Origin: an archaeon
GTDB lineage: Archaea; Asgardarchaeota; Heimdallarchaeia; Heimdallarchaeales; Kariarchaeaceae
Assembly (NCBI GenBank): GCA_024280435.1
Contig: JAJRQD010000109.1
Location: forward strand, 1,879 to 65,878
Length of the DNA stretch: 64,000 nt
Reading direction: 5' to 3'
The notes under the pieces were generated by a model. The model made no database searches, was not told the DNA's origin, and saw only the letters and a program-made list of their open reading frames with translations. This document shows, piece after piece, positions 45,225 through 60,792 of the stretch (its first letter is position 1; each line of letters opens with the position of its first letter). The translations under genes and the position numbers were made by a program.

Positions 45225-46505
45225 ATGAGTACTGTGGAGGAACAATACAACAAATTACTGCTTGAGAGTAAGTTACTGCAGGAGAATAATCTGAATAGAT
45301 ATTTGGAGAGATATAAGGATAGTTTCATTGATAATCTTAATAAGGGAATTGTTGATCTATCAGATAGAAATTTGAGTATTATTCCCATGTCATTATTAGA
45401 GATGGATATCAGAGAACTTAATCTCAGGAATAATAACTTTGAGATATTACCGGATAGTTTTGGAAAATTTAAAAATCTTGAGAAACTGGATCTCGAAAAT
45501 AATCAACTCACCACCTTACCAGATAGTTTTGGACAACTGCAAGAACTCTGGAAACTAGATCTCGGTAGTAACCAATTCACCACATTACCGGATAGTATTG
45601 TAGAGTTAGAAAATCTAAAGAAACTATATCTCAATAATAATAAACTGAGTACATTACCAGATAGTATTGGACAACTGCAGAATCTTGAGAGACTATATCT
45701 CGATGATAATCAACTCACCACAATCCCGGACAGTATTGCACAACTGCAGAAACTTGAGAGACTAGATCTCTGGGGTAATCAACTCACCACATTACCGGAT
45801 AATATTACACAATTGAAAAATCTGGAATTGCTAGATCTCAGTAATAATCAACTCACCACAGTACCGGATAGTATTGGACAACTGCAAAAACTTAGAGAAC
45901 TATATCTCAGTAATAATCAACTCACCACAGTACCGGATAGTATTGTACAACTGCAAAATCTTAAGAACCTAAATCTAAAGAATAACCAATTCACCACATT
46001 ACCCGAAAGTATTGCACAACTACAGAAACTTGTGAGACTATATCTCAGTAATAATCAACTCACCACAATCCTGGACAGTATTTCACAATTGAAAAATCTG
46101 GAATTGCTAGATCTCGAGTATAATCAACTCACCACATTACCTGATAGTATTGTAGAGTTAGAAAATCTAAAGAAACTATATCTCAGTTATAATATACTGA
46201 CCACAATACTGGACAGTATTGGGCAATTGAAAAAACTTGAGATACTGCACCTTATTAGAAATCAATTAACATCATTACCGGATAGTTTTGGACAACTGCA
46301 AAATCTTGCAGAACTGAATCTAAGGGAAAATCAATTGACCACATTACCAGATAGTTTTGTAGAGTTAGAAAATCTTAGGGAATTAAATCTCGAGAATAAT
46401 CAACTGAGCTCAAGACCAGATTACATTGATGATTTGAATTATCTTGAGGAATTATATCTAGATGGTAATAAATTCTATACAGATAAATATTTACCTGATA
46501 TTTAA
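45225..46505 (+). CDS. Leucine-rich-repeat protein with about 16 consecutive 23-residue repeats
   Basis: The repeat consensus is LxxLxLxxNQLTTLPDSIGQLQN, the same type as Roco/SHOC2-like LRRs. Confidence 0.9.
   Translation: MSTVEEQYNKLLLESKLLQENNLNRYLERYKDSFIDNLNKGIVDLSDRNLSIIPMSLLEMDIRELNLRNNNFEILPDSFGKFKNLEKLDLENNQLTTLPDSFGQLQELWKLDLGSNQFTTLPDSIVELENLKKLYLNNNKLSTLPDSIGQLQNLERLYLDDNQLTTIPDSIAQLQKLERLDLWGNQLTTLPDNITQLKNLELLDLSNNQLTTVPDSIGQLQKLRELYLSNNQLTTVPDSIVQLQNLKNLNLKNNQFTTLPESIAQLQKLVRLYLSNNQLTTILDSISQLKNLELLDLEYNQLTTLPDSIVELENLKKLYLSYNILTTILDSIGQLKKLEILHLIRNQLTSLPDSFGQLQNLAELNLRENQLTTLPDSFVELENLRELNLENNQLSSRPDYIDDLNYLEELYLDGNKFYTDKYLPDI
45400..46440 (+). repeat. Array of 69-bp coding repeats (LRR units), some nearly identical
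   Basis: 45577-45633 and 46129-46185 differ at 1 of 57 nt. Confidence 0.85.
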
Positions 46506-48580: not shown

Positions 48581-51500
48581 TTAGATATTTATTTTTACTG
48601 GAATAATAAGATTTGATGTAATTAGTATGAATATCATCTCTATTTGATTATAGGAGCTATCAAATTCAATCTTATCATTAATTATTACAATAACTGAATT
48701 TGTTATCTCTTGGTTGAATGAATATATTTGATACAATTGAGAATTGATATCAGGAGATATTTCAGATGTGACAGTTGAGTTTATCTCGGTATCTGTGCTG
48801 AGATTTTCTACCTCATTAGAATCTGAATATCTATCTTCTTCTGAATTTCTATCTTCTTCAGAAGTTGAATTATACACAGTATCATTTTGATATGCTTTCT
48901 CATCTAGCTCATCAGAAAGATCTAGCTCATCCGAGATATCTGTATTATCAGAAAGATCTATATCATCCGAGATATCTGTACTATCAGAAAGATCTATATC
49001 ATCAGATAATTCGTCGTAATCGTCATATTCATAATCCAAATCATCATCATCTGCAAAATCATGCTCATCCTCATGGTCATCATCATGGTCTAATTTTATT
49101 TCCAAAGAATCGGGGATAAGATTTTTATTGGTATCTCCAGATCTAGGGTCCAAACCAATTGATAATTCAAATTTATCCGAAATTTTATCACCATCAGTAT
49201 CAAAATTACTAATGTCTGTCTTCAATGAATTTATTCTTGAAAAGCCTTCCAGACCATCAATTATGCCATCACCATCTTGATCTCCACCTCTGACAACAAT
49301 TGCAGGTAGATCAACTCTATGATCGTCATCATGGTCTTCTTCATAATGATTATGGTAATATTCATCCTCATGATCTTCTTCATGATGTTCATCATCACAG
49401 TGTTTTTCATCGTGATCATCATCACAATCAGGTCTTCTATCAAAATGTAATTTATCATTCCAACTCTCGATATACTGAAAACCCCAGTTATCAAATGATG
49501 AGCTATCAAGGAAATTATTCACTATTACACTCACCTCACCAGAATTCACAGTTAACCATGAATGTTGACCGAGATCACTTGATGTCCAGAATGCACCTGT
49601 CATCTCTCTTGTCTGAGATCTTGGATTATATGAGATACCAAAGAAATTATTATTCCAGATCACACCAAATTCAAAATCACTATTCGTAAAAGTTGATGCT
49701 GGTTGTCTGAAATTCACATAAGATCTTTTTTCCTGCCATCCACTACCTTGATTCTCAAAGAATGTGAAGCCTGGACGACGACCTAGATTGATTAATAAAT
49801 CAGCATCTCCATCATCATCATAATCCACAGCTTGTAGCTGTTTCACAACTCTTGTGAATTCATGCAGACCGATATGGCTAAGACCATACTCTACATCACC
49901 AAAATATCCTGGAATATATTCAAAATATCCATTGCTTGAATTTCCTGTGTACTGTAAATACATAAAGTTATTCTGTGTGATGAATAATAGATCATCAAAA
50001 CTATCTCCATTGAAATCAGCAGAGACAAATTCAATTACCGCATTAGATCCGAGTAGGTTCATCAATGCATCATCTATCACTGTGGTGTTGATATAATCAG
50101 TCAGCACATATTCATCTGATACAAATTTCCATATATCAATCTGATTATCTCTGTACACAAGCAACTCTGGAATACTATTTTCATATATTGATGAGAAGGT
50201 GAGCATTACTCTTCCCTGATAGTAATTATCCACATTGTATAATTCTGGAACATCCTGTATTCCTTTATTATTGGTATTGTATGGATCAAGAAGCATCTTG
50301 AAACTACCATCATAGAAATACAGATTATTTTCTGCATTATCATTTGCAGAATTACCAAAATCAGGTCCCAGCATAACTTGATCATACTTGTCAAGCTCAT
50401 CTTCTAGATTTTCAAAGCTAAATTGAGGGTTGATCCAGTTGTTAACACTCTTGTAATTAGGATTTGGAACTACATCCCAGCTACCATAATTACTCTGTGT
50501 AAATAATTGGTCCTCATATGAATTTGAAAACTCAAGCATACTTGGATCCCAACTATTAACCCTGGAATTTGAGCTGAAACCAATCATTTTACCCTCTGTG
50601 GTACTCATGAATAATACCGGTGTGTTATTATCAGGTACCTCATCAAAGAAGATACTTCTGACACTTGACATCCGGAGATTTATTCTCACAGCCTCGATTG
50701 ATTCTATCCTTAGATCAACTGTTGTGTTTGAGGATAAAGAGAGATATCTTACATAATTCCAGTGTCTCTTGGATACCATGGGATCAATATCAATATGAAT
50801 AGTCTTATTATCCTCAGACATCCATATATTTAATTTACTATCACAATGATGTTCCTCACAATCATCATCTTCTCTATCATCATCAAATTCTGAATAATCA
50901 TCATCATGCTCATCATCATGCTCATCATCATGTTCATCATCATGTTCATCATCATGCTCATCATCATGCTCATCATCAAGATCTTTCATCAGTTTTATCC
51001 GAATATCTGATAAACTACCATTAAATGCTTCTGCAAGATTGATATTTATATCAGACATTGAATTACCACCAGCTACTACTTCCTCTATGTTTCCAAAATC
51101 AACTGTGATGTTTGCACCATTACTGGCCAATGAACTGAAATGATTATCAGGTGCATTCTCAAGTCCACTCGTGAAGGGTGAGATCACATTTCCAGGATCT
51201 AACCAACTCATAGGTTCTGTAATAATACCATTGAAAGTAACATTACTTGCAGATAATAATATATCAGCATAATTGTCTATTGGATAAGCTCCGGTTCTTT
51301 CCCACAGATATGGATTTAATGTGATTCTATCAAGATAGAATTGATTGCTGACTGTATCATAATCAAGTAACATAACATCCTGTCCTCTGGCAAGTATCGC
51401 CACCTCTTCAGTACCATCCTCATCAATATCAGCAGATTCTAACTGGATGATTGATTTCCACAGAGTTGTGGTATCCTCCCATATACGCTTGAAACATAGA

Positions 51501-52426
51501 TCAAAGTTTACTTTATCATCATCATCATCATCATCATCATGAGACTTTGATTTGACAGTCTGATCACATTGATTCTTCTTTTTATCATCATCATCATCAT
51601 CATGATTAGAATTGATCACAGCAGTAGCATTACTCTTCTCATAGATCAGAATACCACCATGCTTCAATCCAATAATAATATCAAGCAAACCATTATCATT
51701 CAGATCACCTGTGGTTACTGATAATGCACGATCTTTCAGATTATCAGTTCTAAACCTCTCATTATACTGTTCCCACATACTATTCTTGGAATCAAATTGT
51801 ACGGGATCAATACCAAATATATGTACTCGGTTTTTGGATGACGCAACAATGATCTCTCTGAATCCATCATTCTCTATATCAACTATCTCTATATCCCACA
51901 TATCATTGGAGAATATAGATTTCCATACCAGATTGAATACTGTTTTGTCAATCTGTTGCTCAAATATATAGACAAATCCAGATGAACTTGCTATCGACAG
52001 ATCCAGAATACCATTGTTATCAATATCTGAGAATTCAAGATCAAGTACGTTTCCCCGGAATTTAGTCTCATCAATTCTTGTGAATAAAATATATTCCTCA
52101 GTTAAAGTATCCCATTTATAGATAAGAACAGCTTTGATCTGATCATTTGAATGAAATCTAGTACCCACTGCAAAGTATTGACCATCCTCTGTCATTGTAA
52201 CTGATTGTATCTGATCTTTTATCTCCTTATGATCTGAGCCTTTATCATCCTGTGAACTCAGTTTAAATGCAGTATCTGCACTTATAGAAGCAGATTCAGA
52301 TAAATTTCCATCTGCATTAATTAACCCTGCAGATGAACTCTGTGAAAATACAAGTATCATCATCAGAACTACTGTCAGAGTCAATTTAAGTAGATCCTTA
52401 AATTTATTAATTCTTATTTCTCTCAT
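48581..52426 (-). CDS. Giant secreted FG-GAP/integrin-alpha-like repeat protein with His/Asp/Cys-rich inserts
   Basis: It has a signal peptide (..VFSQSSSAG) and six or more FG-GAP-like Ca loops. The acidic tracts are (DDEH)n, poly-D and DCDDDHDEKHCDDEHHEEDHEDE. It has TSP3-like DTDGDKISD and a hydrophobic C-terminus. GGAGG lies 8 nt upstream of the ATG. Confidence 0.85.
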   Translation of the reverse strand: MREIRINKFKDLLKLTLTVVLMMILVFSQSSSAGLINADGNLSESASISADTAFKLSSQDDKGSDHKEIKDQIQSVTMTEDGQYFAVGTRFHSNDQIKAVLIYKWDTLTEEYILFTRIDETKFRGNVLDLEFSDIDNNGILDLSIASSSGFVYIFEQQIDKTVFNLVWKSIFSNDMWDIEIVDIENDGFREIIVASSKNRVHIFGIDPVQFDSKNSMWEQYNERFRTDNLKDRALSVTTGDLNDNGLLDIIIGLKHGGILIYEKSNATAVINSNHDDDDDDKKKNQCDQTVKSKSHDDDDDDDDKVNFDLCFKRIWEDTTTLWKSIIQLESADIDEDGTEEVAILARGQDVMLLDYDTVSNQFYLDRITLNPYLWERTGAYPIDNYADILLSASNVTFNGIITEPMSWLDPGNVISPFTSGLENAPDNHFSSLASNGANITVDFGNIEEVVAGGNSMSDININLAEAFNGSLSDIRIKLMKDLDDEHDDEHDDEHDDEHDDEHDDEHDDDYSEFDDDREDDDCEEHHCDSKLNIWMSEDNKTIHIDIDPMVSKRHWNYVRYLSLSSNTTVDLRIESIEAVRINLRMSSVRSIFFDEVPDNNTPVLFMSTTEGKMIGFSSNSRVNSWDPSMLEFSNSYEDQLFTQSNYGSWDVVPNPNYKSVNNWINPQFSFENLEDELDKYDQVMLGPDFGNSANDNAENNLYFYDGSFKMLLDPYNTNNKGIQDVPELYNVDNYYQGRVMLTFSSIYENSIPELLVYRDNQIDIWKFVSDEYVLTDYINTTVIDDALMNLLGSNAVIEFVSADFNGDSFDDLLFITQNNFMYLQYTGNSSNGYFEYIPGYFGDVEYGLSHIGLHEFTRVVKQLQAVDYDDDGDADLLINLGRRPGFTFFENQGSGWQEKRSYVNFRQPASTFTNSDFEFGVIWNNNFFGISYNPRSQTREMTGAFWTSSDLGQHSWLTVNSGEVSVIVNNFLDSSSFDNWGFQYIESWNDKLHFDRRPDCDDDHDEKHCDDEHHEEDHEDEYYHNHYEEDHDDDHRVDLPAIVVRGGDQDGDGIIDGLEGFSRINSLKTDISNFDTDGDKISDKFELSIGLDPRSGDTNKNLIPDSLEIKLDHDDDHEDEHDFADDDDLDYEYDDYDELSDDIDLSDSTDISDDIDLSDNTDISDELDLSDELDEKAYQNDTVYNSTSEEDRNSEEDRYSDSNEVENLSTDTEINSTVTSEISPDINSQLYQIYSFNQEITNSVIVIINDKIEFDSSYNQIEMIFILITSNLIIPVKINI
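50899..50978 (-). repeat. 12-bp tandem repeat x6.5 encoding (EHDD)n
   Basis: catcatcatg(c/t)t units run at 50899-50970, with a partial unit after them. Confidence 0.9.
51515..51603 (-). repeat. Two (ATC)n trinucleotide runs encoding poly-Asp
   Basis: (atc)~8.5 lies at 51515-51540 and (atc)~6.5 at 51584-51603. Confidence 0.9.
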
Positions 52427-52428
52427 AA

Positions 52429-55400
52429 TTAGGACCTCCCTGTGAATATTTTCTTCCGAATTACTGGAACTGCAACCACCCCGAGTATGCCACTACCCAC
52501 CAGAATTGCACTTATCAGACCAAACTGATCCAATAAATTAACCGGTATAGTAGCATTGACCGAGAAGATAATCACATCACGATAAATATCTCCAGAAGAT
52601 GTGGACACAAATGCCTCAAGGATATACGTACCCTCATCAAATTTTGCATCCAGATCATACCATAAGCCAGGGTTTGTCTTCTCATAGTATGATAGTGTTG
52701 TATTTGCAGAGAAAGTACCAACTATATTTCTATACCTGTACCAGGATCTATCCACATTTGTAATATTAAATACCACAATTGCCAACTCTCCATCTGAATT
52801 CTGATACTCTGTATTGGCAAACGGAGAGAGTATCATCAATGGACCCTGAAATGATGCAAGAATTGCATCCATCTCACTCTCACTAGTATATACATTGGGA
52901 TCTGACAACACTATAATCTCGAATCCATCCGAAAATGTATCATTATCACTATCTGCCCAATCTGGCCTTGTATTGTAGAGATATACCTCATCTCCATCAG
53001 AGATCGTATCTTTATCCACATCTGGATCAAATACTGCCCAGTCATTTACCTCAACAGTAGGATACTCTCCAGAATATTCTAATCCATCTTCCAATCCATC
53101 TAGATCCAGATCTAGATCCAGACCATCTATAATTCCATTATTATTGACATCATCAAAACCAATTTCAGGAGAGAAAGCAGGAAAGTTAGGCTGATATATT
53201 ACCAGCTCTGGACCGTCAGGAAGCATATCTTGATCTGTATCTGCTTCCCAAGAGTAGGTATTATAGTATTGCACAGTTATATTTCTAACGACATAATCCT
53301 TCGGAAGTATATCCCTATCAATAGTAATCTGCATAATACCACTATCTCTAATTGCATCGAAATCCACATTAGGATAATGTACAAACTCAGTCTCCGACTT
53401 TTTCAATAACTCAAGTGAATCAATTATCAAATCACCATCTGTATCTGCATCAATCGGCGATAAATCAAGATAAGTGTAATATTCATCAAAATCAAGAATC
53501 TGATCACCATCACTATCTGGATTATTTGCCTTGGATCCATTCAGAACCTCAGTTTGATCATCTACACCATCAAAATCTGTATCTCTAAGCACTGCAGATG
53601 AATTATATGGTTCTGAAATATCAACAATCAAGTTAATACCATCATCTGAAATATCAATATTTAACTCTTCCCCGTCTTCTAGCGAGTCACCATCTGTATC
53701 AGCAGAATTTGGATCTAGTGCATATGTAACTGATGCTAGACCACTGGCAAGATATATCTCCTCACCATCACTCAATCCATCAAAATCTCCATCTGGGTTA
53801 TTAGGATTGGTATTGGTATTGAATACCTCCTCATAATCATTCAGATTGAACAGATAACTACCATCTGGATTGAGAATACTATCTCTATCTGTATCTGCCT
53901 CAAGTGGTGAGGTTTGATAAACAAATATCTCATCATAATCTGAAAGTTTATCCAAATCTGTATCTGCTGAATTTGGATCTGTACCATAGATGTATATCTC
54001 ATTTCTATCCGAAATTCCATCATTATCCAGATCAGTAGAGGTTGGACTAATGCCCAATTCTACTTCCTCACCATCCAAAAATCCATCGGAATCAGTATCT
54101 TGCAGTAATGGATCGCTACCATAGATATTTACTTCATCAAAATCACTCAATCCATCAAAATCACTATCTGAGGATCTGAGGTTGGTACCAAGTACATAAT
54201 ACTCATCATAATCTGAAAGTTTGTCCAAATCTGTATCAGCAGAATTGGGATTAGAGCCCAGTAGTACCTCTAATCGATCATTTAATCCATCTCGGTCGGT
54301 ATCTGCATCGTATATATCTGTGGAATTGCTGTTTTCAAATTCATCAATTAGGCCATCATTATCAAAATCTCCAGATAATGGATCAGTGGGTATTTGATAC
54401 TGATAATAGAGTTCATATCCATCACTGACCATTACCACACCAACTCCTCCAGGACCGGTATCTGCATCAGAATCAGCCCTTGTTGGATCTGTGTAGAAAG
54501 TACGTGTAACATAATCACCACCTTCGATAATAGTTGCAGTGATACCTCTTATCTCAACACCATCTCTCATATCACCTAGATATGTTCTTGATGGTAGTAT
54601 CTCACCAGAATATGCCTGCATATATGAATCATCATCTGTATCATTATCCAATGGATGAGTATATCCTTTGTTCCAGATCATATCAGTCTCATTTGAATAT
54701 GGTACATATGGTTTATCTCCACCATAATATGGCCCATTCTTGCCTTCCTGGCCGTCCAGAAGCATATCATTATCAGTATCTGGATTCAGAGGATCTGTTT
54801 GGTTGTAATATACTTTACCACCAATTATCACTGAATTCACACTGGGTGTGATTCCAGACATGTCATATACGTAATTTATCTCAAAATAATCTGTAAGCCC
54901 ATCTCGGTCGGTATCTGCGTTAAGTGGATCTGTACCGTAGATTGATACCTCTTCATAATCAGTTAATTTATCATAATCACTGTCTTTACGCAGTGGATTT
55001 GTATTTAAAGCGATTTCAACTGAATCAATTATTCCATCTCCATCAGAATCTGGGATTGTGGGGTCTGTCATATAGAATTTCAGCTCTTCTTTGTCGCTCA
55101 GACCGTCACCATCTGTATCACTGGAGGTTCTGTGTAGAGATTGTATATCTTTGATACTATTTTTGTCATAATTAAGTACGCTCAGACTAGATCCATCTAG
55201 ACTACCGATGTTTAGGCCGGGGAATCTTCTCTCATATTCATCAGGAATACCATCATAATCGTTGTCATAGCCCATACCACCATTTTTCAGTACATCATCT
55301 CTTTTCTTGGGAGATAGATCAAATGGTCCGAATGGTTCTAGTACAGCTCTCCAACGCCATGTTTTCTTCTTGAACAGGAATTTTACTGTAATAGCAGCTT

Positions 55401-56460
55401 CTAGAATGATTAGTATTCTGAATATTATTCTGAGTGGTTGAGTTCTTCTGATGAAGTCCTGATCGAATGTCAATACTAGTCTTATTCCAGCGTAGAAACT
55501 AAGTTTAGCACTTGCGATAAATAGGTTCACCCCGATTGATAATCGTATACCTGCTTCAATCAGGAATCTTAGTATTGCGATACCACTTGCAGATGTTGTC
55601 GGGGTATCTGCTCGCATAAGTATCACCAGGTCTATTCCAAACTGAATTCGTAGTACTAATAGATCAAGACCGATATATCCTGCCAATCTGCTCATGAATC
55701 CACCTCCCAGACCTCCGGTGAATAGATCAAGTATTGTGATATCTCGATATATTCGTATACTGATTTCTAATCCCCATGCGATAACTTTCAGGAATGATTG
55801 AGAATCAAATCCATTGGCACCTAGTTCAAATAATTGTATTGCAAAGTATGCATATCCGGAAAATTCTATATTTACACCTAGTAGTGCCAGTAGTATCTCA
55901 AATATTCCACTCTCAGAGGTAGCCAGTTGTTTCAATCCAAAGTTACCAGATATCACGGGTGCGATCTTGAGGAATGATAATATTCTCTTAAGCATTCCAC
56001 CGAGATCCAGTCCACTGAGTACATTGCTTCCATCGAATAATAGTGAGATAATGAAATCTCTCAGTCCAATTCTGTCAAAATCAATGTTTGCAGTTATTTC
56101 GAAACTATATGAGAATTCAAATAATGTGAATGGTCCGAAGCCAATAGGCATCTCACCACCAATACTGAAGAATTTGAATTTATCAAACAGTACATTTAGT
56201 TTCTCAAGTAAATTATCAATTATATCAGATAGTATTGTTGCCATCCATCTTTTCAATTCATTGATTAGCCATCCAATTCCATCCTGGAAGAATTCCACTG
56301 CACTTGGAATTAGATCAATAAAGAATTTGACAGTATCAAATGCTTCTGGAGATAATAGTCCCTGTAGTGTATTGAGCACGTATGGTGTGAGATCCTGCAT
56401 TATCTGTTCTAGTGATGGTAATTCCACTTTGAATTTATCATCAACTAATCCTTTGAACAT
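52429..56460 (-). CDS. Giant thrombospondin-type-3-repeat protein with hydrophobic N-terminal domain and C-terminal TM anchor
   Basis: It has about 25 DxDxDGxxDxxE repeats and the C-terminus ILVGSGILGVVAVPVIRKK. It has no signal peptide and no SD. It is in frame with the upstream ORF across a single TAG. Confidence 0.85.
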   Translation of the reverse strand: MFKGLVDDKFKVELPSLEQIMQDLTPYVLNTLQGLLSPEAFDTVKFFIDLIPSAVEFFQDGIGWLINELKRWMATILSDIIDNLLEKLNVLFDKFKFFSIGGEMPIGFGPFTLFEFSYSFEITANIDFDRIGLRDFIISLLFDGSNVLSGLDLGGMLKRILSFLKIAPVISGNFGLKQLATSESGIFEILLALLGVNIEFSGYAYFAIQLFELGANGFDSQSFLKVIAWGLEISIRIYRDITILDLFTGGLGGGFMSRLAGYIGLDLLVLRIQFGIDLVILMRADTPTTSASGIAILRFLIEAGIRLSIGVNLFIASAKLSFYAGIRLVLTFDQDFIRRTQPLRIIFRILIILEAAITVKFLFKKKTWRWRAVLEPFGPFDLSPKKRDDVLKNGGMGYDNDYDGIPDEYERRFPGLNIGSLDGSSLSVLNYDKNSIKDIQSLHRTSSDTDGDGLSDKEELKFYMTDPTIPDSDGDGIIDSVEIALNTNPLRKDSDYDKLTDYEEVSIYGTDPLNADTDRDGLTDYFEINYVYDMSGITPSVNSVIIGGKVYYNQTDPLNPDTDNDMLLDGQEGKNGPYYGGDKPYVPYSNETDMIWNKGYTHPLDNDTDDDSYMQAYSGEILPSRTYLGDMRDGVEIRGITATIIEGGDYVTRTFYTDPTRADSDADTGPGGVGVVMVSDGYELYYQYQIPTDPLSGDFDNDGLIDEFENSNSTDIYDADTDRDGLNDRLEVLLGSNPNSADTDLDKLSDYDEYYVLGTNLRSSDSDFDGLSDFDEVNIYGSDPLLQDTDSDGFLDGEEVELGISPTSTDLDNDGISDRNEIYIYGTDPNSADTDLDKLSDYDEIFVYQTSPLEADTDRDSILNPDGSYLFNLNDYEEVFNTNTNPNNPDGDFDGLSDGEEIYLASGLASVTYALDPNSADTDGDSLEDGEELNIDISDDGINLIVDISEPYNSSAVLRDTDFDGVDDQTEVLNGSKANNPDSDGDQILDFDEYYTYLDLSPIDADTDGDLIIDSLELLKKSETEFVHYPNVDFDAIRDSGIMQITIDRDILPKDYVVRNITVQYYNTYSWEADTDQDMLPDGPELVIYQPNFPAFSPEIGFDDVNNNGIIDGLDLDLDLDGLEDGLEYSGEYPTVEVNDWAVFDPDVDKDTISDGDEVYLYNTRPDWADSDNDTFSDGFEIIVLSDPNVYTSESEMDAILASFQGPLMILSPFANTEYQNSDGELAIVVFNITNVDRSWYRYRNIVGTFSANTTLSYYEKTNPGLWYDLDAKFDEGTYILEAFVSTSSGDIYRDVIIFSVNATIPVNLLDQFGLISAILVGSGILGVVAVPVIRKKIFTGRS
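52919..55273 (-). other. Thrombospondin type-3 (Ca-binding) repeat region
   Basis: Examples are DTDGDGLSDKEE, DSDGDGIIDSVE, DTDRDGLTDYFE, DFDNDGLIDEFE, DTDSDGFLDGEE and DSDNDTFSDGFE. Confidence 0.8.
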
Positions 56461-56463
56461 TGT

Positions 56464-59400
56464 CTATGCAAGTCGAATGAAGTAAATCACTGCAAAATCA
56501 TCAATTCCTCTATCTGCAAGAGTTTTCTGTATTTTTTCCATCACAAGATTGATTGTGAACAGTCCTAGTGATCTGAGAATACCACTTATTGATGTCTCAG
56601 TATCAAATGATGAGCTTATCAGTGATAGAATGAAAAATGGTATTTCACCAACAATTAGACTAAGTCTGTCATTCTGTGTTTTGGATAGAAGTGAGGTTGG
56701 TATTCTGCTGAATAGTTCAGCAGTTACGTCTCTCAGGAATTCAGATGATTTTATTCTTGCCTCTTCTAGTGCCTGTTGTGGTGTTAATGATCCGGATGAA
56801 GCGATGATCATGGCTAGTGAGGGGGATTCCTTCAGTACTGCTAGAATATTCAATACTCCAGGTATGACAAACGTCATTATAGTCTCAATAGAAGTTCTTA
56901 CACTATCATTCACATCTTTCAGGAATAATTTCAGTCCATCTCGAATGAGAGAATCTAGATTTGCAGTTGTCAATGTCCTCAGAGGAGAATTGAAGTCTGC
57001 AATTTTACTTACCAAAAATCTTAGTATATCACCAATAAATGCTCTTGTATCAAGATCAATGGAGGTCAATCCACCAATTACAGTATCAATAATAGTATTG
57101 GCTATTGTATTCTCATTTATAGTACCATTTAGAACTGATTTTACCAGTTCCACATAATCTTTGATTTTTGATTGTAAATCAGGTGCTGATAATCCAGTAG
57201 CTGTGTATACAGAGCTGAATAATTTATCAATTGCCTCTGATATTGGGAAATTCTCCAGAAATGATTTTGCATCCTTGATTCCACCCAGTTTACCTGCGAT
57301 CCAGTATGCTAACTTGCCTATCTCAATCAATGGCTTGAATGCATCAAGATATTTCTGTATGAATGTATTGGTGTCAATTGGGTCGATAGCAAGTGGTTTG
57401 ATAAATGATGTACTGATGAAGTTAGTGCTTACCTGATCTATTTTATCAGGATTGGATGTGAATCCGCTGACACTTACTCTGATAGTATTATATCCTGTGT
57501 TAGAAGGATCTGGTGCTGAATCATTATAGTATGCCATTCCATCTATATCTTTTGAGAACATTATATTTCTGAAGTCAAAAGTATTTAGAGTTATCTGATC
57601 AACTCGCATCACTACTCTGACATCAAAAATTGATGAATTACCTGGAATTGCAAATGATGCAGATACAGGTCCATTAGATCCGGGTGCCCATGTATATGGT
57701 CCATCCACAGTGTAATTGAATGTTGATACAAGTTCAAAATTATTATTTAATCCATCCTTATCCACATACACATCAAAGAAATAATTCTCATCCAATAATC
57801 CATTATCACTTACCACATCAACAAATTCTAATTGTACAGTCACAGTATCTCCCTTGAGAAATAGTTGCTTACCCTGTCCACGTACCTGATATCCAAGCTC
57901 CTTGAAGACGATATCAATGACTGATGGTAGTGTAACCAGTTCCTGATGAGAACCTTCTATCTCATAATTTGTGGCACCAACAAGAGCTGGAGAATCTGTT
58001 GGGACTACTCCATCAAATCTGTTCAGGTACCAGGGATTTCCACCAAAGGTGATATAATTCTCTCCTGGTGGTTCCTCATATCCAAGTGCTTGTAATAATG
58101 GGCTTCCTGGTATCATATCATCAGCAGATGCAGCCCAATCGTCATAGAATAGATTTGTAGATCCTATATATGCCTCCCATGTTCCATGATTAGGTGTACC
58201 ATGCATAAATAATCTATCCACTCTTGCAGCCCAGGTATCATCAATATTTGGATCACTAGGACCTGCTTCCAGTAAATATCGGGAGATCAATCCACCATAG
58301 GAATATGCAATAATATTAATCTTTTCATTTACATCTACTCTTGCATTGATTAGATCCTCTACTTGATTTGCAAGCTGTGAGGTATTAAGATTGCCAGTAC
58401 CCAGTGTGGCATCGTATGTCAATGCCTGTGTACCGGGTAAATTATCATCAAAATCAATCACCTCAATTCCCTGAGCCTCTAGAATAGCAATCATAGTATT
58501 GAAGACAGTGGGATCACTTCTCCATCCTGGTATCATTACAACTCTTGGTACGGGTATTGCAGGACCTTTTCCCTGTGCAAAATATTCTGCCACTCCATTG
58601 GCAATTGATAGTCCAGCCTGTGTCTTATTTGCTGTGTACTCAAATTTTGCCCTGTCCTGTGGGTTGGTAATAAAACCTACCTCTACAAGTGCCTGTGGTA
58701 TTGTTGGTGTACCTCTGATGACTGCAAAATTAGCTGTTTTCACACCTCTTGGATACATATCAAGATCTGCCACCATATTGCTGTAAATCTCTGTTGCAAG
58801 GTCTCCACCATATTGATTATCTGTATGATAGTATACCTCATGTCCTCTTGCATTTGGTCTCACAGTACCATTATCAAATTTGAATGCATTGAAGTGTACA
58901 CTGATAAATGCATCTGCATAATCATTCACACCATCTAAATTTGTATCATTAGCAATTCTAGCTCTGGTTTTAAGATCATCTGAAATGCTGGCATTGAAAT
59001 TTTTATCAGTCTCTCTTGTCATCACCACATTTGCACCCAGATTTAGGAGTGCATCCTTCAATTCTAGTGATACATCAAGTGTCCAATCTTTTTCATAAAG
59101 TATCGTTCCATTTGTGTATTCAAAATATGCACCATTGTAAATACCTCCATGTCCCGGATCAACTACTATTGTTCTTCCTATAAGTGGATACAGATTTGGA
59201 ATTAACTCTGTAAATATCAGATCTGGAAGTACTTGATCAATATATTCAGATGAATCCTGTGTTTGGAATACTCCCAGCATGGATTTGAATACAGATCCAA
59301 GTACTGATTTTACTCTTCCGAGAAATGTCTGATCTGTGGAACTTGTAGTTGCAGTATTTGCAAGTGTGGATAATTGGCTCTGATTCGTTACCACTTCTTT

Positions 59401-60792
59401 AATATCAAATTTTAACCAACTTTTGAATATCTGATCAAGAAAGTTATCAAGAACTAGATTTGAAATCCAGGATAGTATAGCCTGGAATACATTCTCTCCA
59501 TCACTAATTTTCTTTATCAGTACTGCCAGTTCATCGTTAAGTATTGCCTGTGCAATTGCCACAACAGTGGAATTAGCAGGGAAAAATTCTTTTATCATTT
59601 TCAGTGAGAAGGCTATTATCTCCTCAGGTCCACCTCTTAGTGCATTGAATCCCTCAAGAGCTATCTCTACATACCTTCTGTACTCACTGAATCCTGGAAA
59701 ACGCTCAACTATTATATCAAGTGCTAATCCTAGAATATTATCTACACTGGGATCATTGATTATGCCCAGTACTTTTGGTATATATTTCATTATTTCATTT
59801 ATCTGATTAACAACTTCTGGGGATAATTCCACATATTGAACATATTTTAGTAAGATACCAAGTAGAGTATCCAGTACCTTTCCAGCAGGTCCCTCGATAC
59901 CAGTTTTAGTTGGTATATTTGCAATTGTGAAATCACTCTGTGCATTATTTAGTACCAATCCATATTCATTTTTATTGATAAGAGACTGAGTAACCGCCTC
60001 ATAGAGAGGAATAGATACACCAGCAGGAGTTAGGTAATTAGCAGTTCTTGGACTTGCATCCATGATATTATCAAATCTATCCTGTTGAGCTACTTTATCT
60101 ATCTGTCCGATAGGATTTACGGGTTCATAACTTCTCTGTACCATTTCATTGATATTCTCAGAGAAATATTTCACAACCAATGCTCTGATATGATCTGCGG
60201 ATGTTCTATATTCATCATTAGGTGCATTTTCAGCTATATAATTACCAACCAACCAGATTGCATTGACTACTGCCAATTTAGCATCTGTCATCTCAGTCTG
60301 ATCATCAACTAGAGATGCATATTGTATTGCAGCACCCAATCCAGCAGTTGCCTGTCTTGTATTTGCCATTGAAAGTATATGCTGCTTATCTGGATAATCT
60401 AAAATGTATTTGGCCAGTTCAGACCATTCATATGATTTACCACCAATAATTGGTCCATCAATATTTGTATCATATACATGAATAACTATCCAGTATGATG
60501 AATCAATACTGAGTAAATCTGTTATCTGATCAATCTCGAATAAATCAACTGGTTGATAGAATGGTGATAGGAATTGCTCGATTCCATTTGCCATATCATA
60601 AGCCTGTGTATCTTTAGAACTGTATGCAATGGCAATCTTCTTATCAAATACGGGTACAACTTTTAGTAAATCCTCTGGATCTGTAATCTTAGCAGCTTCT
60701 GCAGTATTTGCTGCTGCCTGTACAGAGTAGAAACTACTCAGTATGAGTAGAATTATAATCATTATCGTAAATGAGATTGTTTTGTTTTTCAT
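56464..60792 (-). CDS. Giant secreted protein with MurNAc-L-alanine amidase and lipase-like alpha/beta-hydrolase domains flanked by helical modules
   Basis: It has a signal peptide (..SSFYSVQAAANTAEA). For the domains see 58580..59175 and 57920..58545. It ends in TAG. Confidence 0.85.
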   Translation of the reverse strand: MKNKTISFTIMIIILLILSSFYSVQAAANTAEAAKITDPEDLLKVVPVFDKKIAIAYSSKDTQAYDMANGIEQFLSPFYQPVDLFEIDQITDLLSIDSSYWIVIHVYDTNIDGPIIGGKSYEWSELAKYILDYPDKQHILSMANTRQATAGLGAAIQYASLVDDQTEMTDAKLAVVNAIWLVGNYIAENAPNDEYRTSADHIRALVVKYFSENINEMVQRSYEPVNPIGQIDKVAQQDRFDNIMDASPRTANYLTPAGVSIPLYEAVTQSLINKNEYGLVLNNAQSDFTIANIPTKTGIEGPAGKVLDTLLGILLKYVQYVELSPEVVNQINEIMKYIPKVLGIINDPSVDNILGLALDIIVERFPGFSEYRRYVEIALEGFNALRGGPEEIIAFSLKMIKEFFPANSTVVAIAQAILNDELAVLIKKISDGENVFQAILSWISNLVLDNFLDQIFKSWLKFDIKEVVTNQSQLSTLANTATTSSTDQTFLGRVKSVLGSVFKSMLGVFQTQDSSEYIDQVLPDLIFTELIPNLYPLIGRTIVVDPGHGGIYNGAYFEYTNGTILYEKDWTLDVSLELKDALLNLGANVVMTRETDKNFNASISDDLKTRARIANDTNLDGVNDYADAFISVHFNAFKFDNGTVRPNARGHEVYYHTDNQYGGDLATEIYSNMVADLDMYPRGVKTANFAVIRGTPTIPQALVEVGFITNPQDRAKFEYTANKTQAGLSIANGVAEYFAQGKGPAIPVPRVVMIPGWRSDPTVFNTMIAILEAQGIEVIDFDDNLPGTQALTYDATLGTGNLNTSQLANQVEDLINARVDVNEKINIIAYSYGGLISRYLLEAGPSDPNIDDTWAARVDRLFMHGTPNHGTWEAYIGSTNLFYDDWAASADDMIPGSPLLQALGYEEPPGENYITFGGNPWYLNRFDGVVPTDSPALVGATNYEIEGSHQELVTLPSVIDIVFKELGYQVRGQGKQLFLKGDTVTVQLEFVDVVSDNGLLDENYFFDVYVDKDGLNNNFELVSTFNYTVDGPYTWAPGSNGPVSASFAIPGNSSIFDVRVVMRVDQITLNTFDFRNIMFSKDIDGMAYYNDSAPDPSNTGYNTIRVSVSGFTSNPDKIDQVSTNFISTSFIKPLAIDPIDTNTFIQKYLDAFKPLIEIGKLAYWIAGKLGGIKDAKSFLENFPISEAIDKLFSSVYTATGLSAPDLQSKIKDYVELVKSVLNGTINENTIANTIIDTVIGGLTSIDLDTRAFIGDILRFLVSKIADFNSPLRTLTTANLDSLIRDGLKLFLKDVNDSVRTSIETIMTFVIPGVLNILAVLKESPSLAMIIASSGSLTPQQALEEARIKSSEFLRDVTAELFSRIPTSLLSKTQNDRLSLIVGEIPFFILSLISSSFDTETSISGILRSLGLFTINLVMEKIQKTLADRGIDDFAVIYFIRLA
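57920..58545 (-). other. Alpha/beta-hydrolase (lipase/PGAP1-like) domain
   Basis: It has VVMIPGWRSDP, the nucleophile elbow IIAYSYGGLISRYL, and downstream FMHGTPNHG and GVVP..S. Confidence 0.6.
58580..59175 (-). other. N-acetylmuramoyl-L-alanine amidase (Amidase_3) domain
   Basis: It has VVDPGHGG, DVSLELKD, RARIAND, AFISVHFNAF and ALVEVGFITNPQD. All expected Zn-ligand and catalytic positions are present. Confidence 0.8.

Follow-up and report, generated by a model that had tools for sequence, protein, structure and literature searches.

Why should an archaeon that is expected to lack a bacterial-type wall carry, in the middle of a giant exported protein, a murein amidase with its active site intact? 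The question is raised by a stretch of DNA of 64,000 nucleotides (referred to below as the window) from an archaeon of the Kariarchaeaceae (Asgardarchaeota, Heimdallarchaeia). It covers positions 1,879 to 65,878 of the forward strand of contig JAJRQD010000109.1 in assembly GCA_024280435.1. The amidase is encoded by open reading frame 1 (ORF1), which is the N-terminal half of a gene that specifies a protein of 2777 amino acids (aa) in a sister assembly, and it is fused to a lipase-like serine hydrolase. We consider it probable that the two form a displayed enzyme pair on an Asgard surface giant and act on the envelopes of neighbouring bacteria. The parts of ORF1 on which this answer depends are as follows.

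56464-60792, minus strand: ORF1, 1442 aa, comprising a signal peptide, N-module, amidase, hydrolase, beta module and helical module 2.
59188-60711, minus strand: N-module, aa 28-535, without a Pfam family.
58558-59187, minus strand: Amidase_3 domain, aa 536-745.
59149-59151, 59092-59094, 58894-58896 and 58681-58683, minus strand: codons of the amidase residues H548, E567, H633 and E704, respectively.
58912-58950, minus strand: loop NDTNLDGVNDYAD, resembling a Ca-binding loop, aa 615-627, within the amidase.
57898-58557, minus strand: alpha/beta serine hydrolase, putatively of the class-2 lipase / PGAP1 / DUF7379 type, aa 746-965.
57361-57897, minus strand: beta-rich module, aa 966-1144, with no Pfam family and no reliable fold.
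56467-57360, minus strand: helical module 2, aa 1145-1442, where the scaffold resumes.

A reading made from the sequence only had placed an Amidase_3 domain at 58580-59175, and this assignment holds. The interval corresponds to residues ~540-738 of the minus-strand frame, and Pfam Amidase_3 (PF01520) matches residues 542-735 with an E-value of 5.7e-38 (131.1 bits, cut-off 27), covering positions 1-173 of the 174 in the profile. Searching the Protein Data Bank (PDB) with phmmer returned solely murein amidases (12 matches, the best at 1.8e-15). An AlphaFold2 model of the domain, built on a 26-sequence alignment, has a predicted local distance difference test score (pLDDT) of 92.9 and a predicted template modelling (TM) score, pTM, of 0.91. 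Its top Foldseek matches are CwlD (7rag), LytH (7tj4), 4rn7, AmiC2 (5emi), Cwp6 and CwlV (1jwq). For CwlD, LytH, 4rn7, AmiC2 and CwlV the E-values range from 1e-18 to 6e-16, and the target TM scores are 0.85-0.90 for single-domain targets.

In the 26-sequence alignment, the invariant columns are D545-P-G-H548-G, E567-K568, R593, D596, R610, G650 and E704, while the column of H633 (in SVHFNA) is nearly invariant. Alignment to characterised amidases, the check that had been proposed, supports the assignment: the columns match the GHGG, EKD, SxHxNA and ExGF motifs of 4rn7, LytH and Cwp6. We take H548, E567 and H633 to be the zinc ligands and E704 the catalytic residue, as in the roles assigned by published structures. 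All four active-site motifs named in the sequence-only reading are present, and H548, H633 and E704 had been picked correctly, but the zinc-binding Glu had been sought in SLELKD (575-580). This motif falls in a variable stretch of the alignment, whereas E567, in LYEKDW, lines up with the EKD of 4rn7, LytH and Cwp6. By this alignment the metal-binding Glu is E567 and not any Glu of SLELKD. An active amidase, as opposed to the binding-only relic that had already been argued against, is the sensible reading of sequence and model, because the Amidase_3 domain is complete, retains all the family-invariant residues and has a confidently predicted canonical fold.

Within the family, the best NCBIfam model is of the CwlD type, with a score below the equivalog cut-off. 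Matches to the AmiA/B/C models of NCBIfam are confined to the C-terminal ~60-80 residues and score far under the cut-offs. AmiA/B/C enzymes carry an autoinhibitory insert of ~40 residues between the second His and the catalytic Glu. The spacing from H633 to E704 is 71 residues, like that of the small CwlV type, and so leaves no room for such an insert, if the AmiC numbering is what we assume it to be. An AMIN domain is also absent in the Pfam scan of ORF1 and ORF2 (the frame that follows; see below). The domain appears not to be a regulated division amidase of the AmiA/B/C kind. The loop NDTNLDGVNDYAD holds an insertion. It is missing from 24 of the 25 amidases in the alignment, and the remaining one, P0137, has a shorter insert that is unrelated. 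The loop fits the DxDxDGxxD Ca-binding pattern of the TSP3 repeats in its own protein, and BLAST aligns it to the TSP3 repeats of the related giant P0143. It may render the predicted amidase Ca-dependent.

The hydrolase module begins ~10 residues past the amidase, after the linker QGKGPAIPVP. The fusion of amidase and lipase-like hydrolase that had been noted earlier is thus real and its triad is intact, but the gap is not the 40-50 residues that had been given. The putative triad consists of S831 in the AYSYGG elbow, D927 in FDGVVP and H949 in GSHQEL, all invariant when compared with two relatives (alignment A3). The Pfam scores of the window protein are 31.3 bits for DUF7379 (cut-off 33) and 20.0 for DUF676 (cut-off 20.3); a relative that is 55% identical, P0144, passes DUF7379, Abhydrolase_1 and Lipase_2. 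A three-sequence profile searched against the PDB matched the putative lipase 7v3k (9.5e-6) and the Bacillus subtilis LipA family (~0.003-0.04). The beta-rich module of ~180 aa always follows the hydrolase in relatives. The model of hydrolase plus beta module is poor (pLDDT 54.6). Foldseek searches with it gave generic alpha/beta hydrolases, and the doubtful phospholipase-C matches at TM 0.2-0.3 were not used to assign the beta module. Stand-alone secreted forms of hydrolase plus beta module occur in two settings. One is a contig, probably archaeal, that also carries LysX_arch and LysW; the other consists of actinobacterial-looking contigs of high GC content (70% GC).

How these domains came to lie within one protein is apparent from its relatives. 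Residues 1-1200 were compared by HMMER, exhaustively, with 1.84 billion representative proteins. The N-module is common to ~30 giant archaeal proteins, mostly of 2,040-2,250 aa. Hydrolase plus beta module recurs in small secreted proteins, and the amidase matches thousands of bacterial proteins. In the comparison with P0143 (2179 aa), residues 16-535 of the window protein (P0001) align with residues 3-505 at 42% identity. Residues 1135-2777 of the sister protein (P0020), that is, from ORF1 residue 1145 onward, align with residues 534-2179 at 50% identity, through to the C-terminus. Some 609 residues (536-1144) therefore stand in place of ~28 in P0143. Amidase, hydrolase and beta module thus form a ~609-aa cassette inserted in a conserved surface-protein scaffold.

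The scaffold itself is that of an unnamed family of giant archaeal TSP3 proteins, which includes P0143, P0145, P0149, P0156 and P0306 and within which the window protein falls. The family features are a length of ~2,150-2,250 aa, a signal peptide, helical modules, TSP3 repeats, a C-terminal anchor and an FG-GAP gene partner. N-module, helical module, hydrophobic module, TSP3 repeats and anchor succeed one another in an order that the window protein shares. TSP3 repeats are found in 16 of the 23 members of alignment A2, as well as in five members scanned separately. Pfam scans of 27 other scaffold members reveal only TSP3 and, rarely, PKD, with no murein hydrolase. The exception is P0157 (2800 aa), in which ~430 extra residues at a similar position carry an NlpC/P60 domain (aa 706-784; 4478-4714 of L004, a JGI metagenome contig), with 34 bits against a cut-off of 23 and with the DCSGL and HHVGIY motifs. 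To judge from its sequence, the domain is a murein-peptide hydrolase of another type, unrelated to the amidase, on a scaffold of the same family. The combination of this amidase with this hydrolase is found in no other protein among the relatives collected. The whole protein had no match among the GTDB representative genomes, and a word-indexed search with the conserved scaffold region returned four relatives only. P0224, whose alignment appeared to run on from the amidase into the hydrolase, has no hydrolase module and was set aside.

A different arrangement is seen in P0154 (L007 6438-10172; 1244 aa, on a contig of 28% GC). It combines a GH18 chitinase-like domain with two tandem Amidase_3 domains, 39% identical to that of the window, and has a membrane anchor and a C-terminal zinc-ribbon tail. 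Its gene adjoins a heliorhodopsin gene. P0154 may be another archaeal surface murein amidase.

The remaining features of the locus concern export and anchoring.

60712-60792, minus strand: Sec-type signal peptide of ORF1, MKNKTISFTIMIIILLILSSFYSVQA, with the cut placed before AAN and a hydropathy peak of 2.36.
56464-56466, minus strand: in-frame TAG that ends ORF1.
52429-56460, minus strand: ORF2, 1343 aa, the C-terminal half of the gene that ORF1 begins, comprising a hydrophobic module, TSP3 repeats, a C-terminal domain and a C-terminal membrane anchor.
48581-52426, minus strand: FG-GAP (integrin-alpha-like propeller) protein, 1281 aa, starting 2 nucleotides past ORF2.

The signal peptide requires that translation start at the ATG at 60792, since the first ten residues, MKNKTISFTI (60763-60792), provide its basic n-region. 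The database gene call begins 10 codons later, at Met11 (1432 aa), and has neither the basic n-region nor a signal peptide. The other strong hydrophobic segment lies at the C-terminus of ORF2 and is followed by a short basic tail. Between the two, the modules follow in the order N-module, cassette, helical module, hydrophobic module of ~400 aa, TSP3 region and C-terminal domain, the Ca-binding TSP3 repeat region being acidic and ~780 aa long. Because the protein carries a Sec-type signal peptide, both enzymes are predicted to face outward. The pairing with the FG-GAP gene is kept in the sister locus (L001) and in the locus of a distant relative (L002/L003). As a separate observation, the giant protein has no cysteine in its 2,786 residues (52429-60792).

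The host is expected to be without a bacterial-type wall because it is an Asgard archaeon, and Asgard archaea are, to our knowledge, not known to make murein. Its affiliation is supported by the four Ras-family GTPases in the window, which also encodes several leucine-rich repeat (LRR) proteins, and by archaeal and Asgard names among the scaffold relatives; members of a related cluster are labelled Asgardarchaeia.

These elements can be combined in the following model. The amidase would be a Zn-dependent N-acetylmuramoyl-L-alanine amidase of the small, unregulated CwlV/CwlD/LytH type, part of a cassette of bacterial ancestry inserted between the N-module and helical module 2 of an exported, Ca-binding surface giant. 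The C-terminal anchor would keep the giant on the cell and the Ca-binding repeats would make it stiff, leaving the enzymes exposed. The target is probably bacterial, since the only murein outside the cell is that of bacteria or of their remains. As the amidase has no wall-binding domain of its own, contact would have to be supplied by the scaffold and its propeller partner, which would bring the enzymes to the bacterial surface. There, the amidase would strip stem peptides off the glycan strands while the hydrolase would attack ester-linked lipids of the envelope. Should the two cooperate, the neighbour's envelope would be weakened or opened. The purpose may be killing, feeding or intimate attachment; we consider contact-dependent action on living bacteria the likeliest, followed by scavenging.

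Several points speak against this model. The cassette has been seen in one species-level lineage only. No recognised murein-binding domain is found in ORF1 or ORF2 (Pfam, E <= 0.01); an SH3_3 match in the C-terminus of ORF2 has an E-value of 0.059, which is at chance level. The closest solved relatives, LytH and CwlD, require partner proteins for activity (PDB entry titles). The hydrolase is poorly modelled, with Pfam scores slightly under the cut-offs. Finally, the in-frame TAG parts the enzyme half from the anchor half, so that this strain may make no displayed form.

An alternative with a lesser but real chance of being right is that the two enzymes serve feeding. A surface amidase and esterase would digest the murein and lipids of dead bacteria, giving stem peptides and fatty acids to a peptide-fermenting archaeon. 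It draws on the same enzymes and topology as the preferred model, and the lack of a murein-binding or targeting domain in the Pfam scans agrees with it. Amidase action alone frees peptides, which suits a heterotroph, and the operon shows no partner that resembles a toxin or an immunity protein. On the other hand, an adhesin-like scaffold of 2,777 aa with its propeller is a costly holder for a digestive enzyme, such enzymes occur in only two of the ~30 scaffold members, and no peptide or amino-sugar transporter adjoins the operon.

It is improbable that the amidase has as its substrate one of the archaeon's own polymers or an amide outside murein, as it might in the remodelling of envelope glycoproteins. 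The lineage-specific loops of the domain, including the Ca-binding-like insert, could be taken as adaptations of this kind. However, all the family-invariant residues of murein amidases are kept, and the fold matches theirs at the TM scores quoted above. Moreover, close scaffold relatives do without the amidase, which argues against a core envelope function, and the host group is not known for murein in the first place.

The TAG codon raises a different doubt, namely that this strain is in the course of losing the giant gene and that the enzymes are functionless relics. In the sister assembly GCA_024278115.1 (L001) the codon is GAG (Glu), within a single gene for the 2777-aa protein, and in the 50%-identical relative P0143 a Gln occupies the position. 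This makes the TAG either a variant of the strain or an error of assembly. The ATG of ORF2 lies one codon past it in the unchanged frame; ORF2 has no signal peptide of its own and could still be translated from this ATG. Pyrrolysine read-through was considered; nothing supports it, and with GAG in the sister, an assembly error or a plain nonsense variant is likelier. The two sister copies are 99.8% identical. They differ at 17 of 8334 bases, including 11 synonymous changes, 4 missense changes and 1 nonsense change (the TAG), and the four differences downstream of the TAG are all synonymous. Between the two strains the giant gene shows constraint on its sequence (11 synonymous against 4 amino-acid changes). 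The TAG and the lack of a signal peptide in ORF2 count in favour of decay, but this reading is improbable, the TAG being a single change in 8.3 kb and possibly an assembly error. Furthermore, the enzyme half lies upstream of the codon; if the TAG is real, this half would still be exported, as a released instead of an anchored protein.

The sister contig is also informative about the surroundings of the gene. Over the part of the window that was compared (42540-64000), the giant-gene region from 49.4 to 64 kb is 99.75% identical to the sister locus, while the adjoining 42.5-49.4 kb are ~96.6-97% identical. The step points to a recent event, either a sweep or an exchange between strains, that involved the surface-protein operon. 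Off-diagonal BLAST matches against the same contig reveal internal repeats of ~400-830 bp, with 75-79% identity, at 45411-46421 in an LRR gene (45225-46505). Rfam and tRNA scans of the window gave no matches.

As to where the cassette came from, a phylogeny had been proposed to decide on a bacterial or phage origin, and it answers in part. The nearest amidase domains share at most 50% identity, and the named ones belong to Bacillota: Bacillus sp. TS-2 (50%), a Bacillota metagenome-assembled genome, Geomicrobium and Haloimpatiens. The tree gave no well-supported sister (the best local supports were 90 and 86, none of them starred), and for this reason the donor can be named only as 'Bacillota-like', the cassette being probably of bacterial ancestry. 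At third codon positions, the GC content (GC3) of the cassette is 0.23-0.27, the same as in the remainder of the gene and in its neighbours. The transfer is therefore old enough for full adaptation, and contamination is very unlikely, which the presence of the same gene in a second assembly also argues. That a bacterial amidase gene was joined to archaeal DNA by mis-assembly or binning is hardly credible: the nearest amidase relatives are indeed all bacterial, but the cassette lies in frame in one ORF between scaffold modules that are both homologous to archaeal giants, an independent assembly has the same arrangement, the GC3 is host-like and the window carries Ras-family GTPases.

A wider interpretation, which we offer tentatively, is that the giant TSP3 protein and its FG-GAP partner constitute a general Asgard platform for cell contact, with envelope-breaching enzymes slotted in at one site. 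Amidase and lipase here, and NlpC/P60 in another member, would conceivably serve the contact-dependent attachment to bacteria and their opening. If so, the platform would be a molecular handle on how the archaeal ancestor of eukaryotes physically handled its bacterial partners or prey. No known group is more closely related to eukaryotes than the Asgard archaea, and their physical dealings with bacteria lie at the centre of models of eukaryote origin. In this lineage, a TSP3 giant that houses both a murein amidase and a lipase-type hydrolase, and that pairs with an integrin-alpha-like propeller, is a specific, clonable candidate for the chemistry of contact between archaeon and bacterium. If active, the pair would also be a two-enzyme antibacterial module of unexplored source.

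Among known systems, the nearest to the amidase itself are the small Amidase_3 enzymes of Bacillota (CwlV 1jwq, CwlD 7rag/4rn7, LytH 7tj4, Cwp6 5j72), which share its family, its fold and the His/Glu/His plus Glu site and, like it, do without the long autoinhibitory insert of AmiA/B/C. Sequence identity is 25-31% to the solved structures and at most 50% to any sequence. The Bacillota amidases cut the producer's own wall, as autolysins or in the spore cortex and division, whereas the window host should have no murein. The window amidase differs further in lying in the middle of a 2,777-aa surface protein and in its added, TSP3-like Ca-binding loop.

Murein hydrolases of archaea, including Asgard archaea, have already been published, and the cassette extends this recent theme. 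Strock et al. (2025, PMC12352652) report peptidoglycan hydrolases from 175 of 3,706 archaeal genomes (~5%), and two haloarchaeal enzymes, Woldo and Danwoldo, kill bacteria. The supplementary tables hold seven mentions of Asgardarchaeota, among them SH3_3+GH25, LysM+SLT and SH3_16+NlpC/P60 combinations; Amidase_3 is absent from the Asgard entries in the supplement passages covered. As here, an exported murein hydrolase of bacterial type is found in a murein-less archaeon and a bacterial target is proposed. The enzymes of that survey are small, soluble and modular, whereas that of the window is an internal cassette of a giant anchored scaffold. The definition given there demands a Pfam cell-wall-binding domain beside the catalytic domain. 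The window protein has none and lies outside it. Surveys that demand such a domain will miss archaeal murein hydrolases that are targeted by a large scaffold.

Size and location recall the giant extracellular murein-lytic proteins of DPANN archaea, which are thought to act on bacteria (Castelle et al. 2021, PMC8204110). These, too, are very large archaeal surface proteins with murein-cutting domains. They employ a lytic transglycosylase, whereas the window protein, from an Asgard archaeon, joins an amidase and a lipase to TSP3 repeats and an FG-GAP partner. Pfam detects no SLT domain in the window protein, and no DPANN giant is present among the 150 best matches of the exhaustive search, which revealed no kinship in sequence between the two scaffolds. 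A functional precedent for the hydrolase of the cassette is Cinquedea, a secreted alpha/beta-hydrolase phospholipase of Haloferax larsenii with a Ser-Asp-His triad, which kills bacteria via their membrane lipids (bioRxiv 10.64898/2026.06.10.730825). Both are secreted archaeal serine alpha/beta hydrolases with this triad. In contrast to the cassette hydrolase, Cinquedea stands alone and, compared by Pfam family, belongs to DUF900/DUF726, as against a DUF7379/DUF676/Lipase_2-like affiliation. The acquisition itself also has a parallel, since a GH25 lysozyme moved from bacteria to Aciduliprofundum boonei (Metcalf et al. 2014, PMC4241558). There, as with the cassette, a bacterial murein hydrolase was gained and kept by an archaeon; unlike the cassette, the GH25 enzyme is a muramidase and a small stand-alone protein. 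A literature search on Asgard surface proteins returned unrelated papers only. Set beside these systems, four things are new at this locus: the lineage, the scaffold, the placing of the enzymes inside the protein, and the pairing of an amidase with a lipase.

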